A stretch of DNA of 64,000 nt from an uncultured bacterium (GTDB taxonomy: Bacteria; Eisenbacteria; RBG-16-71-46; CAIMUX01; VGJL01), in the NCBI GenBank assembly GCA_964575675.1, contig CAZNRY010000002.1:2187-66186 (forward strand), written 5' to 3'. Numbering within the stretch: the stretch's first letter is position 1; each line of letters begins with the position of its first letter. This document shows positions 44,495-51,522 of the stretch, in pieces. The notes beneath the pieces were generated by a model that saw only the letters and a list, made by a program, of their open reading frames with translations, did not search any database and had not been told where the DNA came from. The position numbers and the translations under genes are program-made.

Positions 44495-47400
44495 CTGCGC
44501 CCCCCGCAGGTCGGTCTTGCCCTCTGTCTCGTCCTCGCAGTGGGCCTCGGGGCGCCGGGGGCGCGCGCATCGATCGAGGGGCTAGAGGAGCCGCAGGCCA
44601 CACCGGACGGCGTGACCTTCGTCCTCTCTGCTCCCGAGGGGACCGGGCGAATCGTCCGGGAGGATGGGGAGTTGCCCCGCCTCGATGTGGCAGGGATCCC
44701 GTCCATCTGCGAGCGCGGGGGTTGGTTGCTCCCTGCGCGATCGGTCTGGGTGGGGATCCCGCGCGAGGGAGGAGTCGAGGTCTCGTTCGATCCTCTCGAC
44801 CGCTCGCCCCTCCGCCTGGATGAGGGCGGCGGTAGTCAGTTGCCCCTCGGGTTGCTTGGGCGCGGTTCCGTAGAGGTAGGGCCTCCCAGTTGGATTCGCA
44901 ATCAGAGGGTCGTCGCCGTGACGTGGATCCCCCTCGTCCCCGCGGCGGGCGATGCCGCGTGGGAGGGCGGGGTCCGAATACGCCTCCGCTTCCAGGGCGC
45001 GAGAGACGCCGCCCCGGCGCCCGTGGGACGGGATTCCTGGGAGCAGCTCTACGCGGATCTCCTCGTCAACTACGAACAGGCCCGCTCCTGGAGGCGCGCG
45101 GGGATCGCCCGCCCGCGGGCGCGGGGCGATTCATTCTCGACGACGGACAATCCCTGGTTCCGCATCGAGGTCGCGAGCCACGGCGTATACGCGATCGAAG
45201 GTGCGGACCTGCAGGCGGCCGGACTGGGGGATCTCTCCCAGATCGTACCCGAGAAGCTCCGGCTCTTCACGGGAAGCGGTCTGAGCCTGCCCGAGGACGC
45301 CTCCGTGGCGGATGTCCCCGCCTGGTTAAACGAGATCGCGATCCACTTGGATGGGATGAACGACGGTCGGTTCGAACCCCAAGACAAGATCCTATTCCGG
45401 GGGCTCGGACCCGACGGCTGGTACGGCGAGTTCGGGCAGCCGGATCACGCCTACGAACGGTACCGGACCGATGAGTTCTCTTCCGTCAACACATACTGGC
45501 TGAGCTGGGGGGACTTCACCGGAGAGGCGCTTCGCTGGACCGAGTCGGCGGGCCTTCCGGTCCCGGATCCGATTCTGACCGAAGCGCGCGCCCGGATCCA
45601 CTATGAGAGGAATCAGATCTGGGATCCGACGCCCTCGGAGATGTCGACCGGCAGCGCCCCTTACCCATCCAATCTGCCGGCTTGGGAGAGATGGTACTGG
45701 CTGCAAGTGATTGCGACGTCCCGCGAGACCCGCTCTCGGATCGACTTCACCGTGCCCGACCCGGTCTCGGGGAGCACGGGGAGATTCCTCGCGCGGGTAT
45801 GGGGGGCATCGTGGGATTTCTCGACCACGTTCAGGGACCACTATGCGCGCCTGATCATCGGAAGCGACTCGGTTGAGGTTTCGTGGGACGACAAGGTCCA
45901 TCGCGATCTCGTGCTGCAGGACCTGCCTCTCGAAGGGGAGGAGCACGAGCTCATCTTGACGGCCCCGTACAAGTCGGATCCGAACCCCAACGTGTTTCGC
46001 CAGGATCGGTGGTACCTCGCGTGGTTCGAGGTCGACTACCAGCGGAAACTCGTCGCGCGGGGTGACAGCCTGGATTTCGTCGTTGATCCCGGCTCTTCGC
46101 GAAGAGGATTTGCGGTGAGCGGGATCTCCGACACGGCCGCAACGGCGATCCTCGATGTCACCGATCCCCTCATGCCCCGCCCGATCGCCCCCGCGTGGGA
46201 GCGGGAAGGCAACTTCCACCGCGCGATTTTTGGGGTTGATCCTCTGGCGAGCGCCGAGCGGCGCATCGCGGTCGTGAACTTGGACGCGGCGCGCACGCCC
46301 CGGATCACGATCGATGCGCCCCCGCCGGCGGGATACTTGCGCGATCGCCGCGATGCCGTCGACTACATCCTGATCACGCACGCATCCTACGGGGAGGCTG
46401 CCGAGATCCTCGCCTCGTGGAGGCGCGAGCACTCGGGGGAAGGGAATGGTTTTCGTGTCGCCATCGTCGACGTGCAGGACATCTACGACGAGTTCTCGGC
46501 CGGCCGGCTCGACCCGACGGCGATCCGCAACTTCCTTCGCGTCGCGTTCGAGCAGTGGAACGGCGGGGACCCCTCCGCCGCTCCAGCCTATGTCCTCCTT
46601 CTGGGGGATACGACCTTCGACTTCCGGGATCGGCTGAAGCAAGGGGCGTGGGTTACGGTGCCGACCTACGAGGGGTTCTATGACGCGAGCCTCATGCGCA
46701 CGGTCTATTCCCCGCAGTTCGCATCGGACGATTGGTTCGTGCTCTACGACCCATTCCCCGATCCTTCGCTCGACATGGCGATCGGGCGGCTGCCCGCCGA
46801 CACGCCCGCGCGCGCGTTGGCGATGGTGGAGAAGGTGCGCAACTACGAGTCGACGCAGGACACGGGGTCCTGGCGGCAGCGGGCTACCTTGGTTGCCGAC
46901 GATGTCTGCCAGGGGCTCCGCTGCGACTATCCCCTCATGTTTACGCACACGCGGCAGACCGAAGCTCTCGCCGACGATGTGCTCCCAGTCGGCCTCGAGC
47001 GTGACCGCGTCTACCTTTACGAGTACGGGAACGAGTGCATCTATGACCGGAAGCCGGTGGCGGCGGCCGCCCTCAGGAAGAGCATCGACGACGGGACCCT
47101 GATCGTTAACTACACGGGGCACGGCAGCGAGGTGCAGCTCGCCGACGAGAAGATCCTTGAGCCGTCCGGCGTGGCCAGCATGACGAATGCCGACCGCCTC
47201 TTCTTCTTCCTCACGGCATCCTGCTCGGTCGGGAAGTTCGATTTTGCGGGAGAAGGACTGAGCGAGGCGTTGGTTCGCAGACCCGGGGGAGGGGCGATCG
47301 CGGCGCTTTCCGCCACGGCCGTTGCCTACTCGCCCAGCAACGCGGAGCTGAACCGACAGTTCTTCCTGGGGACGTTTCCGGATCGCGATTTTGCGCGATC

Positions 47401-48607
47401 AAGGCCGCTCGGCGAGGCTCTGGTCCGGGCGAAGATCGTGATGGGGGCCTTCTCGGCGCTGAACAACCGGCGGTATCCGCTTCTTGGGGATCCTGCCGTC
47501 CGGCTGAGCGCGACGCCGTCGAGTATCCGAATGCAGGTCGAGACCGTGCGTGCGGCCGGGGCCGTCGCGCCGGACACCTTGATGCGGGGGGCCCGCGTGG
47601 TTCTGCGGGGGCAAGTGGTCGACGGCGCGGGTTCGATCATCGATGATTTCCGGGGAGCCGTGAACCTCCGCGTTTACGATGCGGAGATCCGTCGGGACGA
47701 GACGGCCGATTGCCGGGAATCGCGATTCCAAGCGACGTACAACCTGACCGGAGCGGCGATCCTTCGTCAAACGGCCGCGGTCGAGAATGGCCGGTTCGAG
47801 ATCTCATTCGTCACGCCGGCAGTCCTACGGAGCGGCGTCCGTGGGTGGGGGCAGATCTACGGCTACGCGCTATCGGAAGACGGTCGCAGCGCAAGCGGCG
47901 GGCTCGACAGCCTCGTTGTAACCGAGAACCAGCCCCTGCTCGCCGATGACGGCGAGGGACCCCGGATCGTCCTGACCCCCGAGGGCGATCCCGAGCAACT
48001 CGCGTCCGGAGCCTTGTGGCGCGCCGTCCTGAGCGACTCGAGCGGGATCAACATCACACAGCTCGTCTCCAACCGCTCGGTGATCATGCAGATTGCCGAG
48101 GGAACGCGCCTGGCCCATGTGGAGGACCTCTCCGACTCGGTGAGGTTCTCGGAAGGGTACGCGGAAGGGCACCTGAGGTTCCGGTTGCCTGAGGGACTGG
48201 CCGGCGGGCGGCGCTACCGGCTGACCCTGTCGGCCTCCGACAACTTGAACCAGGGCGGCTCCGCTTCGGCGGACTTCTACCTGGTCGAGGGCGCCGGGAG
48301 CGGACTGACCCTCGATCGCGTTTTCAACGTTCCGAATCCGACCGAGGGCGCAACGACCTTCTTCGTCGAAATGAGCCAGCAGGCCGAGATTACGATTCGG
48401 GTCTTCACGGTGGGGGGGCGGACGATCCGCGAGCTTCTTCCCGGGACACTTACCCCGTCCGAGGGACTCGAGAAGGGGATCTACTGGGACGGCAGGGACG
48501 CGGAGGGGGCCTCCCTTGCGAATGGCGTCTATTTCTACAAGGTCTCGATCCGGGGCAGGAACGGGGAGAAGCGGGATCGGGTTGAGCGGCTTGCTGTCCT
48601 CCGATGA
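44495..48607 (+). CDS. Peptidase C25 (gingipain-like) family protein with T9SS C-terminal sorting domain; PorU-like candidate T9SS C-terminal signal peptidase.
   Basis: Catalytic His in NYTGHGSEVQL and catalytic Cys in LTASCSVGKFD, ~65% along the protein as in PorU. CTD NVPNPTEGATTFFVEMSQQAEITIRVFTVGGRTIREL...GIYWDGRDAEGASLANGVYFYKVSIRG. The first canonical start (GTG 44540) lies after a textbook signal peptide, (L/M)RPPQVGLALCLVLAVGLGAPGARA|S, encoded in-frame from 44495. AAGGGAGGG sits 8 nt upstream of the CTG at 44495, which implies a non-canonical CTG start or a sequence error. Confidence 0.7.
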   Translation: MRPPQVGLALCLVLAVGLGAPGARASIEGLEEPQATPDGVTFVLSAPEGTGRIVREDGELPRLDVAGIPSICERGGWLLPARSVWVGIPREGGVEVSFDPLDRSPLRLDEGGGSQLPLGLLGRGSVEVGPPSWIRNQRVVAVTWIPLVPAAGDAAWEGGVRIRLRFQGARDAAPAPVGRDSWEQLYADLLVNYEQARSWRRAGIARPRARGDSFSTTDNPWFRIEVASHGVYAIEGADLQAAGLGDLSQIVPEKLRLFTGSGLSLPEDASVADVPAWLNEIAIHLDGMNDGRFEPQDKILFRGLGPDGWYGEFGQPDHAYERYRTDEFSSVNTYWLSWGDFTGEALRWTESAGLPVPDPILTEARARIHYERNQIWDPTPSEMSTGSAPYPSNLPAWERWYWLQVIATSRETRSRIDFTVPDPVSGSTGRFLARVWGASWDFSTTFRDHYARLIIGSDSVEVSWDDKVHRDLVLQDLPLEGEEHELILTAPYKSDPNPNVFRQDRWYLAWFEVDYQRKLVARGDSLDFVVDPGSSRRGFAVSGISDTAATAILDVTDPLMPRPIAPAWEREGNFHRAIFGVDPLASAERRIAVVNLDAARTPRITIDAPPPAGYLRDRRDAVDYILITHASYGEAAEILASWRREHSGEGNGFRVAIVDVQDIYDEFSAGRLDPTAIRNFLRVAFEQWNGGDPSAAPAYVLLLGDTTFDFRDRLKQGAWVTVPTYEGFYDASLMRTVYSPQFASDDWFVLYDPFPDPSLDMAIGRLPADTPARALAMVEKVRNYESTQDTGSWRQRATLVADDVCQGLRCDYPLMFTHTRQTEALADDVLPVGLERDRVYLYEYGNECIYDRKPVAAAALRKSIDDGTLIVNYTGHGSEVQLADEKILEPSGVASMTNADRLFFFLTASCSVGKFDFAGEGLSEALVRRPGGGAIAALSATAVAYSPSNAELNRQFFLGTFPDRDFARSRPLGEALVRAKIVMGAFSALNNRRYPLLGDPAVRLSATPSSIRMQVETVRAAGAVAPDTLMRGARVVLRGQVVDGAGSIIDDFRGAVNLRVYDAEIRRDETADCRESRFQATYNLTGAAILRQTAAVENGRFEISFVTPAVLRSGVRGWGQIYGYALSEDGRSASGGLDSLVVTENQPLLADDGEGPRIVLTPEGDPEQLASGALWRAVLSDSSGINITQLVSNRSVIMQIAEGTRLAHVEDLSDSVRFSEGYAEGHLRFRLPEGLAGGRRYRLTLSASDNLNQGGSASADFYLVEGAGSGLTLDRVFNVPNPTEGATTFFVEMSQQAEITIRVFTVGGRTIRELLPGTLTPSEGLEKGIYWDGRDAEGASLANGVYFYKVSIRGRNGEKRDRVERLAVLR

Positions 48608-48793
48608 TCGGACCCGGGGGCTGGGCGGGGCGGGCGTCCAAGGGGCCCCTGCGCCTCATGCTGGCGTTGACACCTTCCGAGGCGGTTGGTAGACTCCTGA
48701 AGTTCGCGGTCGAAGAAGAATGATTCCGTCCGCACGCTGGAGGGCGCTCACAGACGCCCCGGCGAGGGGAAACCGGGAAAGGACCGAGCCTCG

Positions 48794-48889
48794 ATGGGTT
48801 GTGGGAAGAAGCGGAAGAGAAAAAAGATCGCCACGCACAAGCGGAAGAAGCGGCTCCGGAAGAACCGTCACAAGAAGCGGATTCGCTAG
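48794..48889 (+). CDS. 31-aa highly basic protein, candidate ribosomal protein bS22-like; not in the supplied track.
   Basis: ATG 48794 to TAG 48887-89 encodes MGCGKKRKRKKIATHKRKKRLRKNRHKKRIR. It resembles bS22 ([33 protein letters not shown]) of Actinobacteria/Bacteroidota. A GGAAAGGA-type purine-rich tract lies upstream, and a strong terminator lies 35 nt downstream. Confidence 0.5.
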   Translation: MGCGKKRKRKKIATHKRKKRLRKNRHKKRIR

Positions 48890-48924
48890 CCGCGCGGGTT
48901 TCCCCACCGTGCACGGACGTATGC

Positions 48925-48964
48925 AAACTCCGGGGTCCTTCCTGAGGACCTCGGAGTTTTCGTG
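48925..48964 (+). terminator. Rho-independent terminator after the bS22-like ORF.
   Basis: 14-bp stem AAACTCCGGGGTCC / GGACCTCGGAGTTT (one G.U pair) with loop TTCCTGA, followed by TTTTCGTGCGTGTTTTCC. Confidence 0.7.
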
Positions 48965-49000
48965 CGTGTTTTCCGGTGGTCCCGCGTTGGATTCGGCTTC

Positions 49001-51100
49001 GTGTTGATCCGAGGGACGATCAAGGGAACGCGGCAGGGATTCGCCTTCCTTTCGCGCGAAGACGGCGGCGAGGACATCTACGTCGCCGAGGAAAACCTCC
49101 ACGGTGCGATCCATGGCGATAGGGTCGAGGCGACTCTGTTCCGGCGTTCCCCTCGGGATTTCCGGGCCGAGGCCGTCGTCGAGAAAGTCCTGGAGCGGAC
49201 CCGGCCGATCTTGACCGGCAACGTGGTGCGCCTTGGACGGACCTACTTCGTCGCCCCCGACACCCCGATCCTTCCCGCGAGAATCCACCTCCGCGGCCTG
49301 ACCGAGAGAGTCCCCTCCGGCGCAAAGGTGCTGTTCCGGATCGAGGACCACAAGGATGGCGCGCCCCTCTCGGCATCTTTCGAGGAGCTGCTCGGAGAGG
49401 GGAACGACCCCGCCTTGGATGCCGTCGTCGTCTCGACGGCGCATCAGCTCCCGGGTCGCTTCCCGGACGAGGCGATCGATGAGGCCATGTTCGCCGCAGC
49501 GCGGGTCGACGCGGAGGACCTGGCCCGAAGGCGCTCGTACGCGGACCGTTTCGTCCTCACGATCGACCCGGAAACGGCGAAAGACTTCGACGACGCGATC
49601 TCCATCCAGAAGGACGCCGCCGGTTACCACCTCCAGGTCCACATCGCCGACGTGTCGTGGTATGTGGCCGAGGGAGGATGTCTCGACGGCGAGGCGTCGC
49701 GGCGGGGCAACAGCGTCTACTTCCCGGGTTCCGTGATTCCGATGCTTCCCGAGGTTCTTTCGACGCACACGGCAAGCCTGGTGCCCGGCGAGGAGCGGCG
49801 GGTCTTGACCGTGGAGATCGACCTCGATCACGGCGGGGAGCCGCTCCGCGTGTCCATGCGCGAGGGACTGATTACGAGTTGCGCCCGTCTTCACTACGAA
49901 CAGGCGCAGGAGATTCTCGATACCGGAGAAGGGGATCCAGAGGTGGAATCGGCGTTGCGCCTCATGGCCGAGCTTGCGCGCCGCCTCCGGAAGCGGCGTT
50001 TTGCGCGCGGCGGCTTTGACCTCGACATCCCGGAGGCGGAGATGACGCTCGGCGCCGACGGGGTGCCTGCGACGCTCACGCGCCACCGGACGCTGGAAAC
50101 GAACCGCCTCATCGAGGAGTTCATGATCCTGGCCAATCAATCGGTTGGGCGTTTTGTCGTCAATGCCGGGATGCCGCTCATCTTCCGGATCCACGAGGAG
50201 CCCGAAGCGGCGGCGCTGGGGCGGTTCGCGGAGATCGCGCTGACATTGGTTCCCGGGGCCTCGCCGCGGGACGTCGAGACGATTCCCGCGCTGCGGCGGT
50301 TTCTCGTCGGACTTCCCCCTGGTGCCTTGACCTCGATCGTCCATGCCTTCTTCCTGAGAAGCATGAAGCAGGCCGTCTACTCTCCGGTCGACGCGGGACA
50401 CTTCGGGCTTGGGATCGACAGTTACTGCCATTTCACCTCGCCGATCCGTCGGTACCCCGATCTCTTCAACCACCGTGTCGTTCGCTGGCTCATCCGCAAT
50501 CCCGATCCGGCCGGGAACGTGCGGGAGGGCGCATCCCGTCAGTGGCGGGAGGATGCCCGGCGGCATTCCCTGAGCTGCAGCAGGACGGAAAGAACGGCCG
50601 CCGTCGCCGAGCGGGAGATCGCGCGGATCAAGGTGTTGAGGTGGGCCGAGCGGCGGATGGGAGAGTGCCACTGGGGGCGTGTTGTCGGACTGACCTCCTC
50701 GGGCCTCTTCATCGAGCTCGAGGAGTTTCCCGTCGAGGGTTTCGTCGCGCGTGCTACATTACGCGCGGGCAGTCGTCTTCGGGAGGAGCGCTTGGCATTC
50801 GTCGAGGGGCGGAGCAAGTGGGAGCTCCGTCTTGGGGACCGCGTTGAGGTGCAGATCGTCCGGGTCGATGTTCGCGAGCGTTTGCTCGATCTGCTCTTGG
50901 TTGGGCGGAGAGGGGATGGGACGAAGAGACCGCCCGCCGCATCCAAGAGCATGCGGCGGGCGCAGCGCGCAACGGCACGGAGGGCACGCGGGGGCGAGAC
51001 TCGGATCAAGCCGCACGCCGATCGTGCCGAACGGAAGAGGGGGGGCGGGAGTTCGAAAAAGACCCGGATCCCCCGCCACCGATCAGGAGGGAGCAGATGA
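49001..51100 (+). CDS. rnr: Ribonuclease R (RNase II/R family: CSD, RNB and S1 domains).
   Basis: Cold-shock-like N-terminus GTIKGTRQGFAFLSREDGGEDIYV, RNB motif IDPETAKDFDDAISIQK, and a C-terminal S1 domain. The start is moved to GTG 49001 because the track start (48962) lies inside the upstream terminator hairpin. Confidence 0.8.
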   Translation: MLIRGTIKGTRQGFAFLSREDGGEDIYVAEENLHGAIHGDRVEATLFRRSPRDFRAEAVVEKVLERTRPILTGNVVRLGRTYFVAPDTPILPARIHLRGLTERVPSGAKVLFRIEDHKDGAPLSASFEELLGEGNDPALDAVVVSTAHQLPGRFPDEAIDEAMFAAARVDAEDLARRRSYADRFVLTIDPETAKDFDDAISIQKDAAGYHLQVHIADVSWYVAEGGCLDGEASRRGNSVYFPGSVIPMLPEVLSTHTASLVPGEERRVLTVEIDLDHGGEPLRVSMREGLITSCARLHYEQAQEILDTGEGDPEVESALRLMAELARRLRKRRFARGGFDLDIPEAEMTLGADGVPATLTRHRTLETNRLIEEFMILANQSVGRFVVNAGMPLIFRIHEEPEAAALGRFAEIALTLVPGASPRDVETIPALRRFLVGLPPGALTSIVHAFFLRSMKQAVYSPVDAGHFGLGIDSYCHFTSPIRRYPDLFNHRVVRWLIRNPDPAGNVREGASRQWREDARRHSLSCSRTERTAAVAEREIARIKVLRWAERRMGECHWGRVVGLTSSGLFIELEEFPVEGFVARATLRAGSRLREERLAFVEGRSKWELRLGDRVEVQIVRVDVRERLLDLLLVGRRGDGTKRPPAASKSMRRAQRATARRARGGETRIKPHADRAERKRGGGSSKKTRIPRHRSGGSR

Positions 51101-51522
51101 GTTGGGACGGCAAGAGCGACCGCCGGCGCCATCGTCGGGCAGGGATCCGCATTCGGAGCGAGTTCGGGGACGCGAGTTCTCCCACGTGGGTCGAGACCGT
51201 GGACTTCAGCGCCGGAGGGTTCTCTTGCTGGATGAACCACCCGGTGCAGCCGCTGACAAAGTTGGCCCTTCAGTTCGACTTCCCGCCGTTCGGGACCGAA
51301 GACAGCCGGACGGTGAGCTGCGAGGCAGTTGCAGTCCGCTGCGAGAAGTCCCCGCAGCCGGAGCACAGCTGGACTGTTGCGGCCGCATTCACGGGTCTCG
51401 CCAAGTCCGACCGCGAGTTCATCGAGCGGTATGTCGACTGGCACGACGAGGTGATGAATCCGCCGCAAGCGGAGGAATCGGGCAACGAGGGGGGGGGCGA
51501 CGCGAGCGGGGAGGAGGCATGA
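51097..51522 (+). CDS. PilZ-domain protein (putative c-di-GMP receptor).
   Basis: PilZ motifs RRRHRRAGIRIR (RxxxR) and VDFSAGGFSC (D/NxSxxG). ATGA overlap with the rnr stop. Confidence 0.65.
   Translation: MSWDGKSDRRRHRRAGIRIRSEFGDASSPTWVETVDFSAGGFSCWMNHPVQPLTKLALQFDFPPFGTEDSRTVSCEAVAVRCEKSPQPEHSWTVAAAFTGLAKSDREFIERYVDWHDEVMNPPQAEESGNEGGGDASGEEA

Follow-up and report, generated by a model that had tools for sequence, protein, structure and literature searches.

The DNA analysed here, a 64,000-nucleotide stretch from an uncultured bacterium of the Eisenbacteria (the window), carries a reading frame of 31 codons just upstream of the gene for RNase R (rnr), and this raises the question of whether so short a frame is a gene at all and, if so, whether its strongly basic product is the small ribosomal protein bS22. 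The initial annotation had proposed this from the composition of the peptide, and the frame reads exactly as it was given there: it runs from 48794 to 48889 on the forward strand, begins with ATG and encodes a 31-residue product, MGCGKKRKRKKIATHKRKKRLRKNRHKKRIR, which would make it an rpsV-like gene. No further in-frame start codon was found upstream as far as the preceding stop. Eleven lysines and eight arginines account for 61% of the residues, and both the length and the basicity of the peptide lie within the range of bS22 (about 28-33 residues, about 60% Lys+Arg); it has no signal peptide. An AlphaFold2 model of the isolated peptide, which is a weak test for so Lys/Arg-rich a sequence, placed a helix at residues 3-30 (mean pLDDT 86.8) and predicted no bend, consistent with the single helix of bS22.

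The peptide matches bS22 of Bacteroidota and spirochaetes

When the peptide was compared by phmmer with all 177,635 distinct PDB sequences, exactly three matches were returned at E <= 10, and all three were bS22: the chains from Borrelia burgdorferi (8fmw_V, E = 5.6e-7), Flavobacterium johnsoniae (7jil_5, E = 1.1e-6) and Porphyromonas gingivalis (9i5v_10, E = 1.2e-6). The alignments with these chains are full-length, collinear and ungapped, at 79-85% identity, and of 20,000 composition-preserving shuffles of the peptide with Met1 held fixed, not one reached its score against the three chains (z = 12.5-13.1). Thus, whereas a frame of 31 codons is by itself within what chance allows, the homology and conservation of this one go beyond chance, since no shuffle matched the bS22 score. 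A profile built from 15 family members retrieved the same three bS22 sequences from the PDB and nothing else; neither the peptide nor the profile matched Thx, bL34, bL36, eL41 or other small basic ribosomal proteins in the PDB at E <= 10. Family alignments showed that all or almost all members have the same non-basic residues M1, G4, T14, H15, N24 and H26, and that positions I12, A13 and L21 vary in a few members only (I/M/V at 12, A/S/N at 13). The proposal of the initial annotation is borne out by these searches, in which bS22 chains are the sole PDB matches, and we regard the frame at 48794-48889 as very probably a bS22 ortholog, of the sequence type found in Bacteroidota and spirochaetes.

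The Borrelia protein (bb0822; 8FMW chain V; PMC10618245) is one of the closest known counterparts of the window peptide: it likewise has about 30 residues and 61% Lys+Arg, 22 of 28 residues are identical, and the two have the layout M-x-C-G-[KR]-K-R-K...THKRKK...KNRHKK in common. It was likewise overlooked by genome annotation (PMC10618245) and by curated profiles, and mass spectrometry of Borrelia had not detected it either. It differs in its GUG start, in ending at KK without the RIR tail, and in belonging to another phylum. The Borrelia protein was seen bound to the ribosome by cryo-EM, whereas for the window peptide translation, ribosome binding and position in the ribosome are predicted from homology. 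The proteins of F. johnsoniae (Fjoh_1533; 7JIL) and P. gingivalis (AAQ66340.1; 9I5V/9I5X) are 81% and 85% identical to it, respectively, over 26 aligned residues; in their ribosomes each is one helix that lies between h44 and h45 and makes contact with 23S H70 (PMC7797042, PMC12123416), and like the window type they were annotated as hypothetical before these structures appeared. The Bacteroidota proteins have MP[SC]G at the N-terminus, His10 and a KKKK tail, where the window peptide has MGCG, Lys10 and a KKRIR tail. In addition, the window gene is preceded by a Shine-Dalgarno (SD) sequence, whereas Bacteroidia are generally without them (PMC7797042).

Curated profiles recognise the actinobacterial type

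The relationship to actinobacterial bS22 proved to be of a different kind. The mycobacterial sequence quoted in the initial annotation is correct, being identical to bS22 chains in the PDB, but the sequence relatives of the window peptide are the bS22 proteins of the Bacteroidota/spirochaete type and not that protein: against M. smegmatis bS22 the shuffle z is 2.7 and 305 of 20,000 shuffles score equally well, which is barely above composition. An hhalign comparison of the window family with actinobacterial bS22 gave a probability of 9.8%, which is not significant, and in reciprocal PDB retrieval at E <= 10 neither the window type nor mycobacterial bS22 found the other. M. smegmatis bS22 (5O5J), mitochondrial mS38 and eukaryotic eL41 are like the window peptide in size and charge, and the structure papers place them, with the same helical form, in the same pocket of the rRNA, whereas M. 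smegmatis bS22 has no significant sequence similarity to it. The two bS22 types are tied by structure, through the same h44/h45 pocket and the same helical form (PMC7797042, PMC10618245, PMC12123416), so that the relationship between the window type and actinobacterial bS22 is structural or analogous; convergence has been suggested for these small helical proteins (PMC12123416).

The profile search that had been proposed as a check (COX24/AURKAIP1) failed to recover the frame: neither Pfam PF08213 (COX24_C) nor NCBIfam NF047430 (ribo_bS22) matched the 31-residue product at E <= 10. In control searches M. smegmatis bS22 scored 46.2 bits with PF08213 and 62.6 bits with NF047430, and the Borrelia bS22 chain and two members of the Bacteroidota type, one of which is labelled "AURKAIP1/COX24 domain-containing protein" by NCBI, matched neither profile at E <= 10. 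Since the profiles miss both the structurally resolved Borrelia protein and the two Bacteroidota-type members, their failure on the window peptide is not evidence against bS22. The bS22 type of Bacteroidota, spirochaetes and Eisenbacteria is thus without a working curated model in Pfam and NCBIfam, and it remains "hypothetical" or uncalled because the curated profiles recognise the actinobacterial and mitochondrial type only.

Conservation and distribution of the family

To follow the frame among close relatives, the window was aligned with five of the loci in which the exact protein is called as a gene (L001-L005); the closest relatives are Eisenbacteria MAGs such as MFD09730.bin.2.41 (L004, on the same contig as L035). 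Across this alignment the DNA of the frame is 95% identical and that of the flanking non-coding regions 40-58%, while the neighbouring proteins are 61-63% (RNase R) and about 50% (C25 peptidase) identical. Eleven columns of the frame vary, one at the first codon position, none at the second and ten at the third, and every change is synonymous; since the loci were picked for an identical peptide or an identical core, however, dN = 0 is in part a product of the selection. In the wider set of 119 loci, 105 distinct DNA sequences specify one and the same 25-residue core, their four-fold degenerate sites being well randomised, and in all 119 the start lies exactly three codons 5' of the core pattern and the stop one to seven codons 3' of it. 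Three signals do not depend on how the loci were chosen: the neighbouring genes have diverged, the core occurs in 105 DNA versions, and start and stop stay in register. On these comparisons the frame, in loci chosen by peptide identity, is under purifying selection as a protein, with its start and stop conserved.

Residues 4-28, written as a degenerate DNA pattern, were found in 113 species-representative genomes. According to their record labels, 68 of the matching loci belong to Candidatus Eisenbacteria/Eiseniibacteriota, five to Krumholzibacteriota, four to Spirochaetes (including Ca. Haliotispira prima), and one each to KSB1 and UBP1; a further 29 are from unnamed MAGs, and five carry labels of other phyla together with an Eisenbacteria-type gene pair and are probably mis-binned. 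Public gene calls include the exact 31-residue protein on at least 23 contigs. The suggestion that the frame could mark bS22 in another FCB-type lineage agrees with a family member in Candidatus Eisenbacteria, which is usually placed in or near the FCB group; NCBI taxonomy lists Eisenbacteria as a candidate phylum only.

Five 'SMAG' contigs (L011, L028, L031, L044 and L072), which are labelled Limnocylindria, Methylomirabilota, Verrucomicrobiia, Saccharimonadaceae and Polyangiaceae, carry an Eisenbacteria-type bS22 followed by rnr, and probably represent mis-binned or mislabelled Eisenbacteria.

Eisenbacteria-type proteins are entered in public databases as "hypothetical protein" or without a name. 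In the representative library we found 107 clusters (P0001-P0107), all nameless and mostly mis-called through N-terminal over-extension, read-through of the stop or internal duplication (P0008, for example), and these mis-calls show that gene callers handle the bS22 gene poorly. A search of the literature on "bS22" found no report for Eisenbacteria, Krumholzibacteriota, KSB1 or UBP1.

Promoter-like site, Shine-Dalgarno-like sequence and hairpin

The frame is embedded in a set of candidate expression signals. A scan of 48300-49400 for promoters returned a single sigma-70-like site, on the forward strand at 48667-48695, where 0.0 were expected in shuffled sequence; it consists of TTGACA, a 17-nt spacer and a TG-extended (TG-n) TAGACT. 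The predicted transcription start lies near 48702, which would give the bS22 frame a 5' UTR of about 90 nt, and the fold of this leader is no more stable than that of shuffled sequences (z = 0.23). In the five close relatives the promoter region has a mean pairwise identity of 88%, against 54-58% in the flanking intergenic DNA; among the loci compared, it was not conserved beyond the close clade. An Rfam scan of the window produced no match, rRNA included.

The purine-rich ribosome-binding site noted by the initial annotation is present as the SD-like sequence GGGAAAGGA at 48775-48783 on the forward strand, 10 nt before the ATG at 48794. Its mean pairwise identity in the close clade is 96%, and an SD-like motif occurs within 22 nt 5' of the bS22 start in 108 of the 119 loci.

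Downstream of the frame, between bS22 and rnr, lies a GC-rich hairpin of 16 pairs followed by TTTT (48925-48960, forward strand), which resembles an intrinsic terminator. Its stem extends from 48925 to 48959, the T-run ends at 48960, and it begins 35 nt past the bS22 stop, as had been described in the initial annotation. The 90-nt region around it folds at -48.7 kcal/mol (z = -6.6), and none of 200 shuffles folded as well. Close relatives retain the stem despite base changes, and in more distant ones a strong hairpin occupies this position with stem sequences unrelated to it; crude criteria picked out a hairpin followed by a T-rich tail in 55 of 115 loci. The U-tracts of the hairpins between bS22 and rnr are often short or interrupted, and the element at 48925-48960 is probably a leaky one of the intrinsic-terminator type. 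No promoter-like site was found between the hairpin and rnr in the scan of 48300-49400, and the stretch separating them is unconserved among close relatives.

Two long frames on the reverse strand, 48656-50671 (671 aa) and 48450-48926 (158 aa), lie opposite rnr and bS22. They are probably shadow ORFs of the kind typical of high-GC DNA, the window having 66% GC, and not genes.

The rnr start and its pairing with bS22

The presence of the hairpin bears on where rnr begins. The longest ORF would start at GTG 48962, 2 nt past the T-run of the hairpin. In the alignment, L002-L005 have an ATG or GTG start opposite a second GTG, at 49001, and in L001-L005 the gene was independently called from the homologous position. 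Pfam domains of the rnr product comprise OB_RNB, CSD2, RNB and S1, and if translation begins at 49001, OB_RNB starts at residue 5. The best position for the rnr start is therefore GTG 49001, which lies beyond the hairpin, rather than 48962. The relocation of the start beyond the terminator, for which the initial annotation had argued, is therefore backed by the gene calls of the relatives and by the onset of OB_RNB, and the revised gene spans 49001-51100 on the forward strand and encodes 699 residues.

Among the 97 loci with at least 1.5 kb of downstream sequence, rnr follows bS22 directly and on the same strand in 84, from Eisenbacteria and Krumholzibacteriota, usually with a GC-rich hairpin of variable sequence in between, and this adjacency is kept even where RNase R has only 29-40% identity to the window copy, Krumholzibacteriota included. 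In the spirochaete, KSB1 and UBP1 loci rnr is absent downstream of bS22. Conversely, of 80 metagenome loci picked by similarity to RNase R (29-41% identity), bS22 lies upstream in the best match (L119) only, and the bS22 motif was absent from the 79 unrelated loci when about 0.4 Mb was searched in six frames; as these loci come mostly from other lineages, they serve as a negative control and give no unbiased estimate of conservation within Eisenbacteria. The pairing of bS22 with rnr is lineage-specific, since 79 of the 80 RNase R loci, mostly of other lineages, are without bS22.

Alternative readings of the frame

The succession of promoter, short frame, hairpin and rnr might instead be that of a leader peptide or upstream ORF, whose translation would govern termination at the hairpin and hence rnr, the likeness to bS22 being secondary. 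The lack of a promoter-like site between hairpin and rnr, the adjacency of the two genes in 84 of 97 loci and the recurrence of a hairpin between them would all fit such a role. We nevertheless consider it highly improbable: conservation of the peptide spans several phyla and extends to the spirochaete, KSB1 and UBP1 loci, which lack an adjacent rnr, and the peptide is 79-85% identical to proteins that have been seen physically in ribosomes. Moreover, 35 nt separate the stop from the hairpin, and at that distance a ribosome terminating there could not mask the hairpin; this spacer is unconserved (49% identity), and no competing antiterminator pairing was seen; and the frame is without runs of regulatory codons beyond Lys/Arg.

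Less probable again is a conserved basic peptide that acts outside the ribosome, as an RNA chaperone, a nucleoid-binding peptide or an antimicrobial-like peptide. An extreme Lys/Arg content would suit any of these, and the ribosomal role in Eisenbacteria rests on homology; yet the near-invariant non-basic positions are common to the ribosome-resolved bS22 of two other phyla, the PDB holds no other match, and a signal peptide is absent. Hardly credible, finally, is a chance frame in a purine-rich non-coding spacer, with either no gene or a conserved RNA or DNA element there, for although 31-codon frames are common in any sequence and the Rfam and curated-profile searches gave no match, all variation is synonymous, 105 DNA versions specify one peptide core, start and stop are always in register, the homology exceeds composition and the 5' UTR is no more structured than shuffled sequence. 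These three readings are thus disfavoured by the conservation of the peptide across phyla, the synonymous-only variation, the unconserved 35-nt gap and the exclusive match to bS22 chains resolved in ribosomes.

Predicted role in the ribosome and possible link to RNase R

In F. johnsoniae, P. gingivalis and Borrelia, bS22 forms one helix inserted between h44 and h45 of the 16S rRNA, where h2 and h27 also contribute to the pocket; it lies beside the decoding centre, and its basic C-terminus contacts 23S H68/H70 and so adds a link between the subunits (PMC7797042, PMC10618245, PMC12123416). The F. johnsoniae protein is lost from isolated 30S subunits at low Mg2+ and is present in 70S complexes (PMC13000457), and the Borrelia gene is a candidate essential gene (PMC10618245). 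The window gene would be transcribed, probably from its own sigma-70-like promoter, and translated from the SD-led ATG into a 31-residue product with 61% Lys/Arg that forms a single helix. By homology with the three proteins, this helix would take up the same h44/h45 pocket of the 16S rRNA, which faces the other subunit and adjoins the decoding centre, and the basic C-terminus may reach 23S rRNA (H68/H70) to provide an extra inter-subunit contact, with the KKRIR tail taking the role of the KKKK tail of F. johnsoniae.

The hairpin would most likely end the majority of transcripts, and read-through would supply the rnr message, so that one promoter could give high expression of a ribosomal protein and low expression of a nuclease. 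As the scan showed no promoter-like site in the interval from the hairpin to rnr, at least part of rnr expression would come from such read-through. RNase R is a 3'-5' exoribonuclease of rRNA and ribosome quality control. A known arrangement of this sort is rpsO-pnp of E. coli, in which the gene for a small 30S protein is followed by a hairpin/terminator and by the gene for a 3'-5' exoribonuclease that is expressed partly by read-through; regulation there also includes RNase III processing and a second promoter. The window resembles it by analogy in arrangement, whereas the proteins differ, being S15 and PNPase in E. coli and bS22 and RNase R here. It is conceivable, though on present indications unlikely, that bS22, hairpin and rnr form a conserved regulatory module that ties RNase R to bS22 expression in Eisenbacteria and Krumholzibacteriota; in such a module an excess of free bS22, or the demand for ribosomes, might for example modulate read-through or stability at the hairpin, as in rpsO-pnp.

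Significance for annotation and the surrounding genes

bS22 was already known from Actinobacteria and Bacteroidota, the two phyla named in the initial annotation, but as a range these are too narrow, since the protein was found in Borrelia in 2023 (PMC10618245); Eisenbacteria is a further phylum for a known family. With it, bS22 now extends to at least one more candidate phylum, with close copies in Krumholzibacteriota, KSB1, UBP1 and further spirochaetes. The authors of the Borrelia ribosome study predicted that bS22 would be found elsewhere, being widespread and missed by annotation (PMC10618245), and the Eisenbacteria protein supports their prediction of a widespread yet overlooked protein. 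The finding leaves the understanding of the ribosome unchanged, and its value lies in the correction of annotation, because the gap in bS22 annotation can cause the starts of neighbouring genes, here rnr, to be mis-set. It is nonetheless relevant for comparative ribosome biology to know which lineages carry bS22, because the protein adjoins the aminoglycoside site and the decoding centre; in mycobacteria, bS22 modulates the access of aminoglycosides to h44 (PMC10081302).

The genes around bS22 in the window are arranged in the order accA, C25 peptidase, bS22, RNase R, PilZ-domain protein, UPF0164 and PEGA-domain protein. The gingipain-family Peptidase_C25 gene (44540-48607, forward strand; 1355 residues, with a weak FlgD_ig-like domain at its C-terminus) immediately precedes bS22 and is syntenic only in the closest clade. 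On the other side, the PilZ-domain ORF (51097-51522, forward strand; 141 residues) overlaps the rnr stop by 4 nt through its ATG (ATGA). The same overlap is found in the gene calls of L001-L005, and this arrangement suggests that RNase R is translationally coupled to a protein with a c-di-GMP-type receptor domain.
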